From Promethearchaeota archaeon (GTDB lineage Archaea; Asgardarchaeota; Lokiarchaeia; Sigyniarchaeales; SOKP01), in contig JAHLWP010000047.1 in assembly GCA_019057865.1 (NCBI GenBank), positions 1-25,183 on the forward strand: a DNA stretch of 25,183 bases, in the 5' to 3' direction. The first letter of the stretch is position 1, and every line of letters begins with the position of its first letter. Made by a program: the position numbers and the translations under genes. The notes below the pieces were generated by a model, which was not told where the DNA came from, made no database searches, and saw only the letters and a program-made list of their open reading frames with translations. Shown in pieces: positions 6,981 to 16,276 of this stretch.

Positions 6981-9680
6981 TTGAAAGATTTTAATGAAAT
7001 TATGAAAATAAATAATGGTCTAAAATTTTATAAGAGTGATTTACATATCCATTATCCTATAAAAATTAAGAATGAAAGTGAATGTTATGCAGAAGAAACC
7101 ACCATAAATGATGTCATTGATAAATTGATAAAAAATAATTATGAATTAATAGTTATGGGACATCATAATTCCATAAAAGCTATTTTTGAAATTAAAAACT
7201 ATATTGAAGCAAATAAAGATCTATCCATCGTTATATTGCCTTCTATCGAATTAAATTTAAAGGAAAATTTTCACCTTGTTATAATTTTTCCAGAAAAGTA
7301 TAATGAAGATCAAATAAGAGATATTTTAGTGAATTTTGGATTAAAATCTCCACCAAACAGAGATTATTATGAAGAAGAGACATTAAACTATTTTGAAAAT
7401 ACAAAATCGGTCACAGAAAAAGATATGTGGTATATTCTTGAAGAATGTAAAAAGAATAAGATAATTGTATTAGCACCCCATATCATGAGTGAAGATAATG
7501 GTTTTTTTAAACGAATAATTGATAGAGATCGAAATAAGATTATCAGAGAAGATCTTCTCACAATTTTAGAATGTAATCAAATTCCAACTTATTATAAGAC
7601 AAGTAAAAAAGAATTAGGAAAAAAAATTGCTCAGATAAGTTGTTCTGATGCTCATAATTTATCTCAAATCGGAAATGCATCTACATGGATAAAAATGGAT
7701 ATTCCAAGGTTTAAAAGCTTACAACAAATTATATATGAACCAAAAATACGAATTTCACTTGAGGAACCCGTATCAGAAATAAAATTTAAGATTATTGGAA
7801 TAACGATTGATGGTGGAAAGTTAAAAAATTTAAAAGTACATTTTAATGAAAATTATAACTCTATTATTGGAGGAACTGGTTCTGGTAAATCTGCTATTCT
7901 TGATGTTTTTAAATATATCTTTAATAACTTTGGTTATAATAACAAATTTAAAAAAATTTCTTTAAAAAGATTATATGATATTCATAAACCCGGTACAAAA
8001 TTCACATTATATTGTCAATGTTTAGGTGATATTTATAAAATTGTTAGAGAAATTCCAACTATTCAAGATTTTAGCAAAAAATTAGAAAAAGATATTGATG
8101 ATCTAATTGAAAATTTGACTCAACATGAGATTTTTAAATTAGTTCTTGATGATTTTCAAAAGATAACAATAGATCTCAACGATATATTTAACCCTGTAAT
8201 ATTTGGACAAAATGAACTTTTAGATTACTCATTTGTACCAGAAAATCTAATTGAGATTTTTAGTGCTAAAGTTAAAAGTGATATATATAATGATTTTAAT
8301 GAGCTTTATAATAATCTAAAAAGCAATATTACTATTTTTGATAAATTGAAAGACTTAAATGATGATAGAGATGATATTGAATTTAAGATAGAAGAAGCTA
8401 ATAAAGATATTGAAAAAAGTGAAATCAAACTTCAAGAAATTAAGGAAAAATTTCCAAAGCTTGAAATTTATAAGAAAGAAAGACAATATTTCAATAAAAT
8501 AAAGAGAAATTTGAAAGATAATTTAATTATTATTGAGAAATTTACTCAAGATCTTACATTAGAACTTGAACTTATTGAATTGACAGAAATAGCGAATAAA
8601 GACCAATTTAAAAAGATTAACAAAAAGCTAGAAAAACTTAGAGAGATTAAAAATGAAATCGATAAAAATATAGAACTTTATAAAAAGATTTATAAAGAAA
8701 TCAAAGAAATTTACAATTCTGAATTGCAAAATATATATAAGACTTATAATAATGAATTTAACGAATATTGTAAAGATAATGAAATACAAGATATAATTGA
8801 AGTTCAACAATATATTACTCAACGTGAAAGTGAACGCAACTTATATATAATGGAAAAAGAAAAAATAGAAAAGGATATTAAAGATTTAGAGCAGAAAAAG
8901 AAAGTTTTTTTAGAAGAGCTTGAAATACTCTATGAAAGATATAATAAACTATTCGAAGATTGGAGAAGACAAGCAGATTTATTTACTTCTAAAATGCAGG
9001 GGGCGACAAAAATAATAATCGAATCAATTACAAATATAGATGAATTCGAATCAATTTTAAAAGAGATGGATTTAAATTCAAATCAAATAAATAAAATTAT
9101 TAAAAAATTTACTCCTAAAGATTTTAACACATTATATGAAAATGATAGAGATATATTTAGAGAAGAATTAACCCAACTTAAATTTAAAGAGAAGACAATT
9201 GATAAGATAAGCGGTAATATTACAGAATTAATCCAATATAGGATTAAATTATGCATTGATAAGCCATCTGTAAAATTTTTCTTAAAGAAGAATTTTAATT
9301 TTTTTCCTATTGATGAGCTATCTACAGGAGAAAGATGTGCTACATTGTTAAATTTTGTCTTTTGTGAAAGTACAGAACCCGTTATAATTGATCAACCAGA
9401 AGATAATATAGATTATAATTATATTAGGGAAACGATTAAAATTCTTAAAGAACAAAAGGTTATAAGACAATTCATAATTGTATCACATAATCAAAATTTA
9501 CCGGTTTTAGCAGATGCTGATTTAATACTAACTATGAATAATATTCAAGATAAAAAGATTGAAATCAGATATCGGGGGAGTCTTGAAAATGAGGATATTC
9601 ATAAATCTATATTAAATCTTGAAGGCGGAAAGGAGGCATTTGAGCTTAGAAGTAAAAAATATCAATTAATTGAGTTTTAG
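6981..9680 (+). CDS. PHP phosphoesterase + coiled-coil ABC-type ATPase fusion (TrlF family / Ppl-like defence protein)
   Basis: PHP motifs DLHIH, HHN, SIE, FHL, APH, SDAH; Walker A GGTGSGKS; Q-loop FGQNE; long coiled coil; signature LSTGER; Walker B IIDQPED; H-loop SHN; terminal LEGGKEAFELR. TTG start, alternative ATG at 7002. Confidence 0.88.
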   Translation: MKDFNEIMKINNGLKFYKSDLHIHYPIKIKNESECYAEETTINDVIDKLIKNNYELIVMGHHNSIKAIFEIKNYIEANKDLSIVILPSIELNLKENFHLVIIFPEKYNEDQIRDILVNFGLKSPPNRDYYEEETLNYFENTKSVTEKDMWYILEECKKNKIIVLAPHIMSEDNGFFKRIIDRDRNKIIREDLLTILECNQIPTYYKTSKKELGKKIAQISCSDAHNLSQIGNASTWIKMDIPRFKSLQQIIYEPKIRISLEEPVSEIKFKIIGITIDGGKLKNLKVHFNENYNSIIGGTGSGKSAILDVFKYIFNNFGYNNKFKKISLKRLYDIHKPGTKFTLYCQCLGDIYKIVREIPTIQDFSKKLEKDIDDLIENLTQHEIFKLVLDDFQKITIDLNDIFNPVIFGQNELLDYSFVPENLIEIFSAKVKSDIYNDFNELYNNLKSNITIFDKLKDLNDDRDDIEFKIEEANKDIEKSEIKLQEIKEKFPKLEIYKKERQYFNKIKRNLKDNLIIIEKFTQDLTLELELIELTEIANKDQFKKINKKLEKLREIKNEIDKNIELYKKIYKEIKEIYNSELQNIYKTYNNEFNEYCKDNEIQDIIEVQQYITQRESERNLYIMEKEKIEKDIKDLEQKKKVFLEELEILYERYNKLFEDWRRQADLFTSKMQGATKIIIESITNIDEFESILKEMDLNSNQINKIIKKFTPKDFNTLYENDRDIFREELTQLKFKEKTIDKISGNITELIQYRIKLCIDKPSVKFFLKKNFNFFPIDELSTGERCATLLNFVFCESTEPVIIDQPEDNIDYNYIRETIKILKEQKVIRQFIIVSHNQNLPVLADADLILTMNNIQDKKIEIRYRGSLENEDIHKSILNLEGGKEAFELRSKKYQLIEF

Positions 9681-9783: not shown

Positions 9784-10722
9784 ATAGACATTCCTTATTA
9801 TAATAATGTAGATGATCTGTGGATTATTACAAGTTATTTTAATCCATACCATTATAAGACGAAATATAATAATTTTAAATTATTTAAAAAAAGTTTAGAT
9901 TGTTCTGGACTCCAATATCTTGTTGTTGAAACAGCTTTTGGAAATACAAGTTTTGAATTGAAGAGGTCTCCACATATCATGCAGATTAGAGGTAAAGATA
10001 TTATGTGACAGAAAGAGAGAATGTTAAATCTAGCTTTAAAAAAAGTTCCATCTTCTTGTAAAAAAGTAGCTTGGCTTGATTGTGATATTCTTTTTAAGAA
10101 CTCAAATTGGACCATTGATGCTTCAAAATTGCTTGATAATTACCCAGTTATACAACTCTTTGAAGATGTGATAAGACTCCCCAAAGATCTATCTGTTAAC
10201 TCTTCTACTACACAATATTGGAAAAGTTTTGCTAATATTTATGTAAGACATCCAAATATTCTATTAATAGGAACATTTACAGAACATGAGCACACTGGTT
10301 TTGCATGGGCTATGAAAAGAGAGATTCTTATTAAATATAAGTTATACGATGCTTGTATTGCAGGAAGTGGAGATCATTTAATGGCACATAGTTTTTGTGG
10401 AGATTGGGATTCTCCTCATGTGTTAAATTTAGTAAGAAGTAGACCACATTTAATTCACTTTCAAAAATGGAGTGAAAAAATCTACCAAGACATAAGAGCT
10501 AGAATGTATTATGTCTCTGGTACAATTCTCCATCTTTGGCATGGTGAAATGGAAAATCGAAATTATTTCACAAGAAATAAAGAATTTAGTTATTTTGAAT
10601 TCGATCCTAAAAGAGATATTAAATTTGGGGCTAATGGTCTTTGGGAATGGAGTTCTTATAAACCAAAACTTCATAATTGGGCAAAAAGTTATTTTAATTT
10701 TCGATAAGAAGATGGAAATTAA
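9784..10722 (+). pseudogene. GT-A-like (DxD) glycosyltransferase-related gene with in-frame stops
   Basis: The frame of ORF 10021..10707 continues upstream through DDLWIITSYFNP…VETAFG…IM*QKERMLN (TGA 10006-10008 where Trp is expected) and downstream through FR*EDGN* (TAA 10705-10707). AWLDCD motif; no ATG at the apparent 5' end (ATA at 9784). Confidence 0.75.
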
Positions 10723-10737
10723 AAATAGGGAATTAAT

Positions 10738-10995
10738 ATGCTAGAAAATAAAATTAAACATGAAAGAGAAAAAATAGAAGAAATAGCAGGCCGAATCGAA
10801 AGATATGCTGATAGATTTGAAAATGCAAACGAAAGTGAAAAAGCTCAACATGCACGAAAGACAGCTGAAAAAATAAGGAGTAGCATATATTTAGATAAAG
10901 CTTTAAAAATTGAAAAAAAATTTGTCTTGAATATCAAGAGAGAACAATTATTAAGAATACAGATAGGAGATATGAAAAAAATGGATGGTTATTAG
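10738..10995 (+). CDS. Small alpha-helical hypothetical protein
   Basis: 85-aa ORF, AGGGA upstream of the ATG, E/K/A-rich helical composition. Confidence 0.55.
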   Translation: MLENKIKHEREKIEEIAGRIERYADRFENANESEKAQHARKTAEKIRSSIYLDKALKIEKKFVLNIKREQLLRIQIGDMKKMDGY

Positions 10996-11411
10996 CACTA
11001 TATTCATGATTCAAGATATGTTTGTTGAATTGTCAGCATATCAAATTAAGACTCTCTGAAAGTATTGACATATATAGCATGCTATAATTAATACCATACA
11101 ACAACTTAAGTTATTATACATTTTTTTCTTAATTGAATTGAAAATATAAGTGTAGATCAGATTAAAAAATAAATTGAGAGTTAGCTTAATCTGAAAATCC
11201 AACCTTCTATGTTTTAATAATTTATTATAATTTAGGGTAAAACCTGAAAGCGATTTTTCCTTGCTTCTTTTTTTTAATAGAAGATCACCTTTTATAATTA
11301 GGTTACAGTTCTAACACGTCCCTTGTCTTTTTTTATAGACTTTCAAAAAAGATTACTTCGTATTAAACTAATTTTAAATATAAAATACGCCATTACATTT
11401 ATGTATAAGAT

Positions 11412-12074
11412 TTGGATTCTTTGTTATTGGGTAAAATGAAAGATAAAGAAACAATAATTAAAAAATTAAAGGATAATAGGAATCTGGTTCTCATTCTTTT
11501 TACTATACTTATCTCAGGATTAACCATTGGAGTTCTTATATCAAAAATAGATAAACCGATAAAAAATACTTATTATATTGCTATGGAAGATGCCTATATT
11601 AAAAATGCTTATCATACTACTCATAATACGACTAGTTTACATATAAAAGATAATTTCCTAATAACTCTTATCAAATTTGATTTTACAGATAAACCTAAAC
11701 ATTGGGAAAAATGCGAAATAAGTTTTTATGTATATTATATTGCTTTAGATATGTTAATTTATTGTTATTTAACTAATTATACTTGGTCAGAGAATATAAC
11801 ATATAATCCTATTTGGTCGCCATTGTTTGGTTATGGTCAGGATTATGTTGAATATGAGGGATATTACAAAATAAAGGTGGATTACAATCTCAATTCTAGC
11901 TCTGGTTTCAAAAGAATTGATATTAGTAAATATATTAAGGATAACAAAACACTTTCATTAGAGATACTTGGCGGACATATTAGCGGTGTAGGGACAACAG
12001 GCGGAGACATAAGAATATATTCTAAAGAAGCTGATGTAAGTATTGAATACAAACCACAATTAATTTGGAGTTAG
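11412..12074 (+). CDS. Membrane-anchored DNRLRE/CBM96-like beta-sandwich protein
   Basis: N-terminal TM helix (LVLILFTILISGLTIGVLI), then EDAYI…LIKFD…WSENITYN…IDIS…YSKEA…PQL. Likely start is the ATG at 11436. Confidence 0.65.
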   Translation: MDSLLLGKMKDKETIIKKLKDNRNLVLILFTILISGLTIGVLISKIDKPIKNTYYIAMEDAYIKNAYHTTHNTTSLHIKDNFLITLIKFDFTDKPKHWEKCEISFYVYYIALDMLIYCYLTNYTWSENITYNPIWSPLFGYGQDYVEYEGYYKIKVDYNLNSSSGFKRIDISKYIKDNKTLSLEILGGHISGVGTTGGDIRIYSKEADVSIEYKPQLIWS

Positions 12075-12104: not shown

Positions 12105-12404
12105 CTATATATTTAAGACTTCATTTATAGTATAAATCTTACCTTCTTGTGCTTGGGCAATAAACTTTATAGCTCTGATCGCACCACTAGCAAAGCACAT
12201 TTTACTATGGGCTTGGTGTTTTAACTCAATTCTTTCTCCTGCTCCGGCATATAAAATAGTATGATCGCCAACAATATCTCCTGCCCTTATGGCGTGGATC
12301 CCAATTTCTTGTCTTGCCCCGATTAATCGTTTATTTGGTCCTTTTTCACGCCCAAATTTAGCGACCGCTTCAAATTGAATTCCAAGAGTCTTAGCAATTT
12401 CCAT
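12105..12404 (-). pseudogene. dapB: 3' fragment of dihydrodipicolinate reductase
   Basis: EIGIHAIRAGDIVGDHTILYAGAGERIELKHQAHSKMCFASGAIRA is the DapB C-terminus. The Rossmann domain and HHxxKxDAPSGTA motif are absent, and an in-frame TAG lies four codons upstream of the ATG. Confidence 0.9.
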
Positions 12405-13042: not shown

Positions 13043-13338
13043 TAGTAATGATATAAAATAATTAAAAGTAAAGATAACATTTATCCGAACTTAAATGAAA
13101 ATCACTAATTTTAATTTAACTCATATATTTCAAATTGAGTCAATAATCGAAAGATTACGTAGTAGATACCTTATACTTTTTATTATAGTCTTAAGAATAT
13201 ATACAATGAAAACAAAAAACCTCTCAGAATTTAGCATTATAAATAAATAGTACTGAGTAACTCCAATTTGGACTGGAATGCTTAAATACTCATAATTACC
13301 TTATTAGTTAATAGATTAGAATAAAAAAGGTTTTTATT

Positions 13339-14115
13339 TTGAAGGAAATTTCTCATAAAACTTTAGCATATATAGTTGGAACATCTGGGACGCAACCATT
13401 ACGCAATAAATCGCTTGAGATTCTAATTGAATCCTCGGTCGAGCCAGATACAATCAATCTTGAACTTATTGCAAATGATATCCTTAATAGTTTAATAGTG
13501 CCTATTGAATGGCTCATAAATCATGGAATAAGAGCTAAGGAACTTGCCGCACGGTCAATTATGGAATCATCAAATGCATATCAGATTAGAGATAATGCTT
13601 GGATCAAGTATTTAGGATGGGTATTCCATTATATTGCGGATTGGGGTACACCTCATCATGCACCTTTCTCGAGGTCAAATCCAATTCCTGCACTAATGGG
13701 AGCGGGACTATTAATTGGAGGATTATTTGGTGGACTTTCCAAAGCAGGGCAAGGGTTAAAAGAAGTATTAAAAGCAATTGCAAAAGGAGTTGCAATTGGA
13801 GGAGGTATTAGCGGAACAGTGGCATTAATTGACCTTGCAATTGAACATAATGAATTTGAGAAGCACTGTGACAGACGCATTAAAGAAAACTTAGATTTAG
13901 TTGTCAACACATTTAAGAAAAACAGAAAATCCTTAAAATTTGAAAATATATTTAATGCTCTACAATTTTTTGAGATAAAAATGGATGAATTACGTCAAGA
14001 TTGTAATAATCTTCCAAAAAATTGGGTTTATAATAGTGATAATAAAGGTTTTGCATCTTATTTAGCTAAAATCGCGGTTATTATGGACATTGCTTCTCAA
14101 ATAGTTATGGGGTAA
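13339..14115 (+). CDS. Zn-dependent phospholipase C / S1-P1 nuclease-fold protein with a glycine-rich hydrophobic insert
   Basis: Metal-ligand motifs SH (N-terminus), EPD, LGWVFHYIAD, TPHH, HNEFE; no signal peptide; Gly/Ala-rich segment between TPHH and HNEFE. Confidence 0.8.
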   Translation: MKEISHKTLAYIVGTSGTQPLRNKSLEILIESSVEPDTINLELIANDILNSLIVPIEWLINHGIRAKELAARSIMESSNAYQIRDNAWIKYLGWVFHYIADWGTPHHAPFSRSNPIPALMGAGLLIGGLFGGLSKAGQGLKEVLKAIAKGVAIGGGISGTVALIDLAIEHNEFEKHCDRRIKENLDLVVNTFKKNRKSLKFENIFNALQFFEIKMDELRQDCNNLPKNWVYNSDNKGFASYLAKIAVIMDIASQIVMG

Positions 14116-14120
14116 TTAAG

Positions 14121-15062
14121 ATGAGTTCTAAGGATAATGAAATTAAGATTTCGAATGCAATCGAAAAATTAGGGGATACTCATAAAAGAATTATCTTACA
14201 GTTTGATCCTTTTTTGGATTCAGGAAGAAGTATTCCAAATCAAGAGATATTGCACAGATTAACTGAGGGTAAAACCTCTATAATTTGCAGGTCATCATTT
14301 TATAGTCTCTTCCCTCAATTAGTCGATTCAGATATTTTAATTAAAGACGAAAAATCTTGTTCATACATAATAACAGGATTGGGGTGGAAAGTATGGGAGA
14401 AGCTGAGAAGTAAACCAAGATCGTATGTTCCAGATGAGATCGAGTCTAAAATAAACGATATTATCTCTAAAATAGGACAACTTAACAGGTTATTAGCTTA
14501 TCCAGAATTATTAAAGAAGTGGTCTGAGAACTTTAGTATTTCTGTTGTAAATTTTTCTGAATTTTTAGTTAAGAACAAAAATACTAAAGCTAATCTAGAG
14601 TATGTTAGTGCCCTCGGATTAATTACATGGAATCATCTCTATCAACCAATATTATTAGCTGATAAGGAATATATGAAATGCACTCAACATCAATTTCCCT
14701 CATTTAAAAATCGAATATATACATTAAGTAAATATTTTGACTGGGAATATTGCATTCTTGACGATAGTAAATGGTTTGTGTGTCAAGATCATTATTTTTG
14801 GAGATCACATTATTATACACTTTACAAATTCGCTATTTCAAATATACCTGGTGATATAATCTTTAATCAAGCAAAAGAAATTGAAGATCAGACAAAAGCC
14901 TTTCTTAGAGAAGGGAATTTAAGTAAGAGAATAAATAATATTGTGTTTAACAAGTTGGTACGGCAAATAAAACATTTAAAAGGGTATTATTGGCCAAAGA
15001 AATATAAAATTAATCTTTCATGGTTATTTCCGCGGTTAGAAGGTATGCTCCTAAAAAGATAA
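14121..15062 (+). CDS. N-terminal winged-helix protein with an uncharacterised C-terminal domain
   Basis: RSSFYSLFPQLVDSDILIK…YIITGLGWKV wHTH pattern; starts after a 5-nt gap from the upstream stop. Confidence 0.65.
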   Translation: MSSKDNEIKISNAIEKLGDTHKRIILQFDPFLDSGRSIPNQEILHRLTEGKTSIICRSSFYSLFPQLVDSDILIKDEKSCSYIITGLGWKVWEKLRSKPRSYVPDEIESKINDIISKIGQLNRLLAYPELLKKWSENFSISVVNFSEFLVKNKNTKANLEYVSALGLITWNHLYQPILLADKEYMKCTQHQFPSFKNRIYTLSKYFDWEYCILDDSKWFVCQDHYFWRSHYYTLYKFAISNIPGDIIFNQAKEIEDQTKAFLREGNLSKRINNIVFNKLVRQIKHLKGYYWPKKYKINLSWLFPRLEGMLLKR

Positions 15063-15709: not shown

Positions 15710-16276
15710 CTAAAGATATCTTTCTTTTAAATTTGATTTTAATTTCGCTATTGTATCTAGTACTTTTGATTTTATTTCATAAAAATCTTCCCGTTCTCTT
15801 AAATTTAGATTTATAGCCCTAATATCTTTATTATTAATTTTATTCCTTAGTATCCTTTCAAATTCCTCACATTTTTGTTTAGAATATGAAAAAATATTAT
15901 ACGTATACCCTCTTTTGATTGATAAAGAATACCTAGAAAAGTAATTATGAAGTTTAGTTAAATCATTATATATTTTCTCCCTATTTGGATTATTAAAACC
16001 ATAATATTTTACTTCTATAAAAATAACAGGTTTGTAATTCAAAAAAATTAAAATATCTGGAATTTTATTTGATGCTTTCAGGTAAAAAGTATTATAGATA
16101 TTCCATCGAGAATCTCTAAAAGCATCAATTTCATTTCTAAGAAAACCAATGAATCTGCATTGAAGATCAAACTCATTTAAAATATTGCAATTAATTATCT
16201 CATTAATTATAAATGATTTTGCCTTTCTTTCGATGATTTCATAAAAATCCTCGACATATAGAGATAATAACCCCAT
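15710..16276 (-). CDS. PD-(D/E)XK restriction-endonuclease-fold protein
   Basis: N-terminal helix NEFDLQ, IPDILIF, IFIEVKY, followed by the DLTKL helix. Starts after a 2-nt gap from the upstream stop, with GAGGA as RBS inside the upstream gene. Confidence 0.75.
   Translation of the reverse strand: MGLLSLYVEDFYEIIERKAKSFIINEIINCNILNEFDLQCRFIGFLRNEIDAFRDSRWNIYNTFYLKASNKIPDILIFLNYKPVIFIEVKYYGFNNPNREKIYNDLTKLHNYFSRYSLSIKRGYTYNIFSYSKQKCEEFERILRNKINNKDIRAINLNLREREDFYEIKSKVLDTIAKLKSNLKERYL

Follow-up and report, generated by a model that had tools for sequence, protein, structure and literature searches.

A leaderless phospholipase C-fold protein with a glycine-zipper insert and a clade-specific winged-helix partner in Asgard archaea

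The known zinc phospholipases C (PLCs) are toxins that bacteria secrete, and the known S1/P1 enzymes of the same superfamily are secreted nucleases. The last metal ligand is Glu in the PLCs and Asp in the S1/P1 nucleases, and in the secreted enzymes the amino group of Trp1, freed by leader cleavage, also binds metal, together with the carbonyl of that residue. The only branch of the superfamily already tied to biological conflict is Het-C/Tox-HET-C, which occurs in polymorphic toxins and fungal incompatibility and whose motif is listed as HxxxDxxxH (PMC3482391). Here we describe a pair of adjacent genes in a 25,183-nucleotide (nt) stretch of DNA from a Promethearchaeota archaeon (contig JAHLWP010000047.1, our C36; hereafter the window), whose genome of 4.26 Mb has a G+C content of about 27% and carries an archaeal small-subunit rRNA on contig C77. 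The first gene (gene 1) encodes a cytoplasmic protein with the zinc PLC/P1 nuclease fold, a complete ligand set and a glycine-zipper insert; the second (gene 2) encodes a winged-helix protein. We tentatively favor the reading that gene 1 encodes a membrane-bound PLC-type effector under winged-helix control, to which we give somewhat less than an even chance. Its probable site of action is the inner side of the membrane, and its putative role is in conflict or defense.

The two genes are separated by 5 nt (junction TAA-ttaag-ATG), are flanked by about 300 nt of noncoding DNA upstream and about 650 nt downstream, and constitute a self-contained unit. Gene 1 and the features of its product are as follows:

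13339-14115, + strand: gene 1, TTG start, 258 amino acids
13354-13356, + strand: ligand codon H6
13447-13449, + strand: ligand codon D37
13522-13524, + strand: ligand codon H62
13627-13629, + strand: ligand codon H97
13639-13641, + strand: ligand codon D101
13657-13659, + strand: ligand codon H107
about 13675-13836, + strand: hydrophobic insert with glycine zippers, modeled as helical (residues ~113-166), placed after ligand H107 and before ligand H170
13846-13848, + strand: ligand codon H170
13858-13860, + strand: ligand codon E174

A profile built from 25 gene 1 homologues matched Bacillus cereus PC-PLC among the PDB sequences (E value of 0.006), aligning H97, D101, and H107 with H118, D122, and H128 of that enzyme. 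The AlphaFold2 model of gene 1 is all-alpha, with a predicted local distance difference test score (pLDDT) of 85 and a predicted template modeling score of 0.85. Compared by VIA-align, it superposes on the alpha-toxin N-domain with a Z score of 18.1 over 190 residues (root mean square deviation [rmsd], 3.0), on PC-PLC with a Z of 15.5, and on Listeria PLC with a Z of 15.1. In total, 28 PLC and nuclease entries score between 18.1 and 12.1 over 184 to 196 residues, whereas the best unrelated chain reaches only 4.6. Since Foldseek alone returned weak E values for this model (0.05 to 0.1), we base the fold assignment on the VIA-align comparison.

The eight side-chain ligands, namely H6, D37, H62, H97, D101, H107, H170, and E174, show at least 90% conservation, if not full invariance, in sets of 15 and 25 homologues with identities down to 23 to 30%; these motifs are therefore not a product of chance. 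They follow the canonical order of the superfamily, H, D, H, H-x3-D, H, H-x3-E/D. An earlier, sequence-only reading of this DNA had proposed the PLC/P1 nuclease fold and a set of zinc ligands from short motifs. The fold is borne out by the structural comparison, and every quoted motif is present (S5-H6, E35-P36-D37, H97-YIA-D101, P105-H106-H107, and H170-NEF-E174), but the list was incomplete, since it missed the conserved H62. We conclude that gene 1 has the zinc PLC/P1 nuclease fold with a complete ligand set.

Among described proteins, the bacterial zinc PLCs are the closest (B. cereus PC-PLC, Listeria PlcB, and the Clostridium perfringens alpha-toxin N-domain; PF00882). They have the all-alpha fold of gene 1 (Z of 15 to 18), the same order of His, Asp, and Glu ligands, identical H-x3-D-x5-H and H-x3-E spacings, and Glu in the last position. 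Unlike gene 1, however, they are secreted and processed to Trp1, whereas the archaeal protein is leaderless, has its Met five residues before the first His, stays within the cell, lacks a C-terminal PLAT-like domain, and carries an insert of about 49 residues between the equivalents of PC-PLC H128 and H142. Four differences thus separate the gene 1 family from Zn_dep_PLPC: its intracellular location, its start at the initiator Met, its hydrophobic insert, and its restriction to one Asgard family.

The first two of these differences follow from the N-terminus. In a set of 88 loci of the family, the codon that lies five positions ahead of H6 is TTG in 57, ATG in 28, GTG in 1, and ATA in 2 (both from the same genome), so that a start codon occupies this position in 86 loci; an in-frame stop lies no more than 10 codons upstream of it in 63 of the 88. 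Because TTG accounts for just 14% of the internal Leu codons in family genes, we take this codon to be the true start. The N-terminus is therefore fixed, and the family has no signal peptide, as the sequence-only reading had supposed in calling the protein cytoplasmic. In the model, residue 1 aligns with residue 1 of the known chains, and it is Met, not Trp. The distance from Met1 to His6 equals the Trp1-to-His6 spacing of P1 nuclease, and the unformylated archaeal initiator Met may supply the N-terminal metal ligand without processing. With its fixed Met1-to-His6 distance, this protein would allow a clear-cut test of the way in which a site usually reliant on leader cleavage can be built without it. 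TTG starts are used by 65% of the family, an unusually high share that is compatible with deliberately low expression.

The third difference is the insert. In gene 1, 63 residues separate H107 from H170, against 14 for the equivalent PC-PLC ligands, H128 and H142, which leaves an extra segment of about 49 residues. As had been noticed from the sequence, a Gly-rich hydrophobic stretch lies here between two ligand motifs (residues ~113 to 166). It is 25% Gly, with Kyte-Doolittle peaks of 1.66 and 1.71 in a 19-residue window, and it contains several GxxxG runs (G123-x3-G127-x3-G131, G149-x3-G153, and G154-x3-G158); a Lys-rich amphipathic piece joins its two hydrophobic stretches. AlphaFold2 places helices at residues 116 to 134, 140 to 154, and 158 to 183, with a pLDDT of 51 to 65 in the insert, and the Pfam Gly-zipper families do not match gene 1 at E values up to 0.1. 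A single folded domain cannot straddle a membrane, and the positively charged loop likewise favors a monotopic or re-entrant arrangement. We therefore read the insert, beside the active-site cleft, as a possible monotopic or re-entrant anchor or a possible oligomerization surface, rather than as a two-pass hairpin.

The Gly positions hardly vary among close relatives but have degenerated in more distant ones, and a clade of 237-amino-acid proteins retains only one hydrophobic helix, ahead of H170. This pattern bears on a different role for the protein. GxxxGxxxG zippers are known oligomerization and pore motifs, and the hairpin is the most unusual feature of gene 1; a catalytically silent pore former or membrane depolarizer, for which the PLC fold would be a mere scaffold, could be imagined on these grounds. 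Such a protein should conserve its zipper ahead of its metal site. The opposite is found, with the eight ligands kept nearly invariant down to 23 to 30% identity while the zipper degenerates, and we therefore regard this role as highly improbable.

The insert also matters for the choice between the two enzymatic branches. The S1/P1 nucleases (PF02265) share the superfamily fold with gene 1, and S1, P1, TBN1, and SmNuc1 match the model with Z scores of 12.1 to 13.0 (13.0 for S1 nuclease), SmNuc1 through structures that hold nucleotide products. In addition, residue 1 and the first His ligand are equally far apart in P1 and in gene 1, and nucleases are the commonest defense effectors. Gene 1 might then encode a membrane-held S1/P1-type nuclease or nucleotide phosphodiesterase that degrades single-stranded DNA, RNA, or a nucleotide signal during infection. 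The PLCs, however, score 2 to 5 Z units higher than the nucleases. The family profile retrieves only PLCs, and no nucleases, from the PDB sequences at E values up to 10, and the S1-P1 nuclease family does not match gene 1 in Pfam at E values up to 0.1. The invariant last Glu is that of the PLCs, in contrast to the nuclease Asp, and a hydrophobic hairpin beside the active site suits a lipid substrate better. We thus consider a nuclease unlikely. Given the higher PLC scores, the PLC-only profile matches, and the invariant last Glu, the gene 1 family is closer to the PLC branch of the superfamily than to the nuclease branch.

If gene 1 encodes a PLC-type effector, gene 2 is the candidate for its control. 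The features of this gene and of the region upstream of the pair are as follows:

13262-13272, + strand: palindrome TCCAATTTGGA, candidate operator for the winged-helix partner
13282-13288, + strand: TTAAATA, candidate archaeal TATA box, 51 to 57 nt upstream of the start codon
14121-15062, + strand: gene 2, ATG start, 313 amino acids
14121-14414, + strand: N-terminal winged helix-turn-helix of gene 2, residues 1 to 98, from predicted-structure comparison
14415-15062, + strand: C-terminal domain of gene 2, about 215 amino acids, basic and aromatic-rich by composition, without family or fold match

Residues 1 to 98 of gene 2 are modeled as a winged helix with a pLDDT of about 85. By VIA-align this domain matches TubR, Rio2, and RosR (Z of 9.7 to 10.2; rmsd of 2.2 to 2.3 Å over 82 to 85 residues), and Foldseek assigns it a probability of at least 0.9 to PadR/MarR proteins. 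The remainder of the protein (residues 101 to 313) has a Phe/Trp/Tyr content of 16.4% and a pI of 9.35, and conserved blocks run through it in 12 homologues. Nothing convincing was found for it in Pfam, NCBIfam, PADLOC, a PDB profile search, Foldseek, VIA wide, or the ESM Atlas. Residues 100 to 180 are modeled as a generic helical bundle and the rest poorly; as the pLDDT is mostly below 65, we do not claim a new fold. The sequence-only reading had placed the partner 5 nt downstream and described it as a winged helix-turn-helix joined to an aromatic-rich domain of no known family, a description that holds on each count.

Upstream of gene 1, the palindrome TCCA-N3-TGGA is unique within the 25-kb window. 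It recurs at the same position in locus L004 and is present twice in L015 and L090, and the (T)TTAAATA element is conserved upstream of gene 1 in the window, L004, L005, L014, L015, and L090. The L006-L017 subclade, with partners of about 30% identity, has three TCATAC-N-AT repeats in place of the palindrome. Since the operator-like repeats change together with the winged-helix subclade, their arrangement suggests that gene 2 autoregulates through them.

The L090 locus (10001-11698, Promethearchaeota archaeon YT6_002; also L093) is unusual in both genes. Its gene 1 begins with ATA, and its partner has an in-frame stop followed by an ATG restart, giving products of 96 and 198 amino acids split exactly at the boundary between the winged helix and the C-terminal domain. 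L015, which is 89% identical to L090, has a TTG start and an intact fused partner. In L090, either gene 1 and its partner are decaying together or the partner domains are separable.

We next consider how far the pairing extends. In a quick IQ-TREE maximum likelihood search with 67 full-length family members, with genes at related loci called by a simple longest-open-reading-frame rule, the window falls in a clade of 15 rows (clade A). A gene 2 homologue lies directly downstream in 13 of the 13 testable loci of this clade, and the other two rows sit at contig ends; the partner is recognizable down to 26 to 31% identity, with gaps of no more than 12 nt or an overlap. In a second clade, nine loci (L029, L039, L051, L052, L068, L069 [8195-8593], L076, L077, and L080) have, instead of gene 2, an upstream gene for a 99- to 132-amino-acid protein, 26 to 43 nt before the PLC-like gene. 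This protein has a CPxCG...CPxC zinc ribbon, a C-terminal glycine-zipper transmembrane helix, and a possible strand-helix N-terminus. It may be an alternative, membrane-anchored partner, and its glycine-zipper helix fits a membrane setting for the gene 1 family. The largest clade (26 rows, the 237-amino-acid proteins) and another of 11 have no conserved neighbor.

The two-gene system proposed from the sequence thus stands for the window's clade but not as a general property of the family, as other clades differ. Linkage of the pair, named then as a check, holds in clade A, yet only 2 of the 20 species genomes that carry the gene 1 family also carry gene 2, which is absent from the other 18. 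Gene 1 is therefore the part that stays constant, and gene 2 is an accessory specific to one clade. The membrane-attacking or nucleolytic activity and the sensor or antitoxin role that the sequence-only reading proposed for the pair are putative. One further clade A locus (L089, 136-5947), at a contig end, has three tightly spaced genes upstream of the PLC-like gene, including one whose 1,034-amino-acid product joins a prenyltransferase alpha-alpha toroid to an ABC-type ATPase.

This distribution also bears on a toxin-antitoxin origin, in which the pair would be a reverse-order type II module of a mobile element, with gene 1 as the toxin and gene 2 as an antitoxin that binds it and autoregulates. 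Type II modules consist of two adjacent genes, one of them for a DNA-binding protein, and the pair has this form: gene 1 comes first, the winged-helix gene follows after a 5-nt spacer, and the promoter has operator-like palindromes. Integration is suggested by an insertion sequence and a 3' fragment of dapB nearby, and in L090 the ATA start and the interrupted partner make both genes look compromised together. At 313 amino acids, however, gene 2 is large for an antitoxin. Nor does gene 1 keep consistent antitoxin company, since its homologues persist without gene 2 in most genomes and gene 2 is found in one clade only. A toxin-antitoxin module is, in our view, quite unlikely.

The family as a whole is small and patchy. 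A set of 1.8 billion proteins yields 26 representatives of it at the 50% identity level, and metagenomes yield 80 loci; the relatives stem from marine-sediment metagenomes, and one is from a metagenome-assembled genome titled Promethearchaeota archaeon. Within the window's own taxonomic family it occurs in 19 of 134 other genomes (~14%), with up to 4 copies per genome, in contrast to none of 266 genomes sampled from the rest of the phylum; an earlier draw of relatives had found it in 2 of 36 congeners. When genome contigs were scanned, the single gene 1 protein found nothing, whereas an alignment (A1) found two loci. A pattern scan of IMG/VR and a fold search of BFVD returned no gene 1 relative, and there is therefore no sign of a viral family. 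In another Asgard family, locus L087 (987-2126, genome G049) encodes a 379-amino-acid PLC-like protein with EPD, HYLADxGxPFH, and HxxHE motifs and without the glycine-zipper insert; other PLC-fold lineages thus exist in the phylum.

In the window, a TrlF/Ppl-type PHP-ATPase gene lies at 6981-9680 and a gene for a small HSDR_N-like nuclease at 15710-16276, beside one for a 742-amino-acid protein; further neighbors include DDE transposase, NYN, and DUF6602 genes. The location among defense genes pointed out in the sequence-only reading is therefore real. The same genome has a second gene 1 copy, 40% identical to the first, on contig C34 (10853-11632 of G000:C34; 8845-9645 of L003). It lies between genes for a Cap4-nuclease/nSTAND3 protein (768 amino acids) and an AbiTii-like protein (311 amino acids), in a second defense island with DUF4238 and HEPN-like genes nearby. 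Both gene 1 copies of the source genome thus sit among defense genes. The 311-amino-acid gene downstream of the C34 copy was considered as a gene 2 homologue and rejected, being AbiTii-like and unrelated to gene 2. Three loci that belong to different clades, L003, L004 (2182-3165, - strand), and L025 (19-267, - strand), have an AbiTii-like gene no more than about 600 nt away from the PLC-like gene. Elsewhere, the 148 neighbors of family members include genes of defense type, among them a DpnII restriction endonuclease, Schlafen/AlbA_2, GmrSD, GajB, AriA-like ATPases, SspE, and a DRT reverse transcriptase.

Several observations weigh against a membrane-bound effector with a role in defense. With regard to the enzyme, the Pfam match of gene 1 to Zn_dep_PLPC (PF00882) lies below the gathering threshold (13.6 versus 26.8 bits; E value of 0.067), and of the eight ligands only H97, D101, and H107 are aligned individually with residues of a PLC of solved structure, the others being assigned by order, spacing, and whole-chain structural alignment. 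The insert is modeled with low confidence and has borderline hydropathy, it is short and only weakly hydrophobic in a few distant members, and its Lys-rich connecting loop speaks against a full transmembrane hairpin. Most family members lack a dedicated partner, so that the enzyme either is not intrinsically toxic or is regulated otherwise. As for the neighborhoods, many of the 148 genes elsewhere encode TPR, LRR, and Roc proteins, and the defense context is heterogeneous. Enrichment in defense islands, also proposed as a check, is suggestive only: the 148 neighbors matched 156 PADLOC models and 148 random source-genome genes matched 66 (~2.4-fold). This control is crude, as it counts models rather than proteins, and redundant GajB models inflate it.

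The same observations would suit an enzyme of membrane-lipid turnover outside defense, active in head-group remodeling or phosphate scavenging and encoded in variable regions, with gene 2 as an ordinary local transcription factor. A nontoxic enzyme would be expected to lack an immunity-like partner, as most members do; mixed neighborhoods with many nondefense genes (TPR, LRR/Roc, and response regulators) would be unsurprising, and random genes of the source genome also match 66 PADLOC models. On the other hand, in about 90 loci neither lipid-synthesis genes nor phosphate genes show conserved linkage to gene 1. The distribution is very patchy, at about 14% of the genomes of one family, and some genomes carry several divergent copies; recognized defense genes flank both copies of the source genome, and partners turn over between clades, as is typical of conflict modules. 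Lipid turnover is thus, to our mind, rather unlikely.

The most economical account of a membrane-bound effector would run as follows. The gene 1 product would be a cytoplasmic three-metal (zinc-type) phosphodiesterase of the PLC branch, in which the unprocessed initiator Met sits where the secreted enzymes have Trp1. The glycine-zipper helical hairpin by the active-site cleft would anchor it in the inner leaflet or drive its oligomerization there, and the anchored enzyme would cleave polar head groups from the cell's own phospholipids. In clade A, cotranscribed gene 2 would control gene 1, its winged helix binding TCCA-N3-TGGA beside the TATA box and repressing the operon, while its C-terminal domain might sense a trigger or keep the enzyme in check. 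The module would then be an accessory conflict element, for abortive-infection defense against viruses or for addiction, that moves among the variable islands of one Asgard family. A similar logic, damage to the cell's own membrane from inside by products of defense-island genes, applies to the CapV patatin phospholipase of CBASS and to the 2TM effectors. Their folds are unrelated to that of gene 1, however, and gene 1 has no linked cyclic-nucleotide synthase or sensor domain.

No described system accounts for the pair. Neither protein matched PADLOC-DB 2.0 at E values up to 0.01, and neither NCBIfam nor the literature searched contains a model or paper describing the gene 1 family or the pair. 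Literature searches on zinc PLC-fold defense effectors, on glycine zippers with abortive infection, and on Asgard defense with phospholipase yielded nothing relevant besides Het-C. The Het-C family of Pfam does not match gene 1, the Het-C motif HxxxDxxxH differs from the HxxxDxxxxxH of the gene 1 family (H97-x3-D101-x5-H107), and the Het-C toxins are exported as domains within large proteins, whereas gene 1 encodes a small cytoplasmic protein. The sequence-only reading knew of no named system with this architecture, and searches of PADLOC, NCBIfam, Pfam, and the literature agree. Fold and ligands place the previously undescribed gene 1 family in the PLC/P1 nuclease superfamily.

A cytoplasmic archaeal branch with a built-in membrane hairpin would, if true, widen the known roles of this fold. 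We know of no characterized enzyme that cleaves archaeal ether phospholipids, and gene 1 would be a candidate. As a defense effector, it would add a new class to the little-explored Asgard immune repertoire. A bolder proposal is possible but doubtful, namely that gene 1 is the founding member of an Asgard-restricted group of intracellular, membrane-inserting zinc PLC-type immune effectors, with Met1 as a metal ligand, which attack archaeal ether phospholipids from inside under interchangeable regulators (the 313-amino-acid winged-helix protein, the zinc-ribbon/transmembrane protein, or none). It would be the first PLC-fold antiviral effector in prokaryotes.

Finally, the window contains a stand-alone C-terminal fragment of DapB at 12105-12404 on the - strand (99 amino acids; Pfam DapB_C, E value of 1.7e-22). 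Contig C12 carries a second dapB copy, which shares only 68% identity with the fragment, and this fits a 3' gene duplicate carried in by an integrating element.

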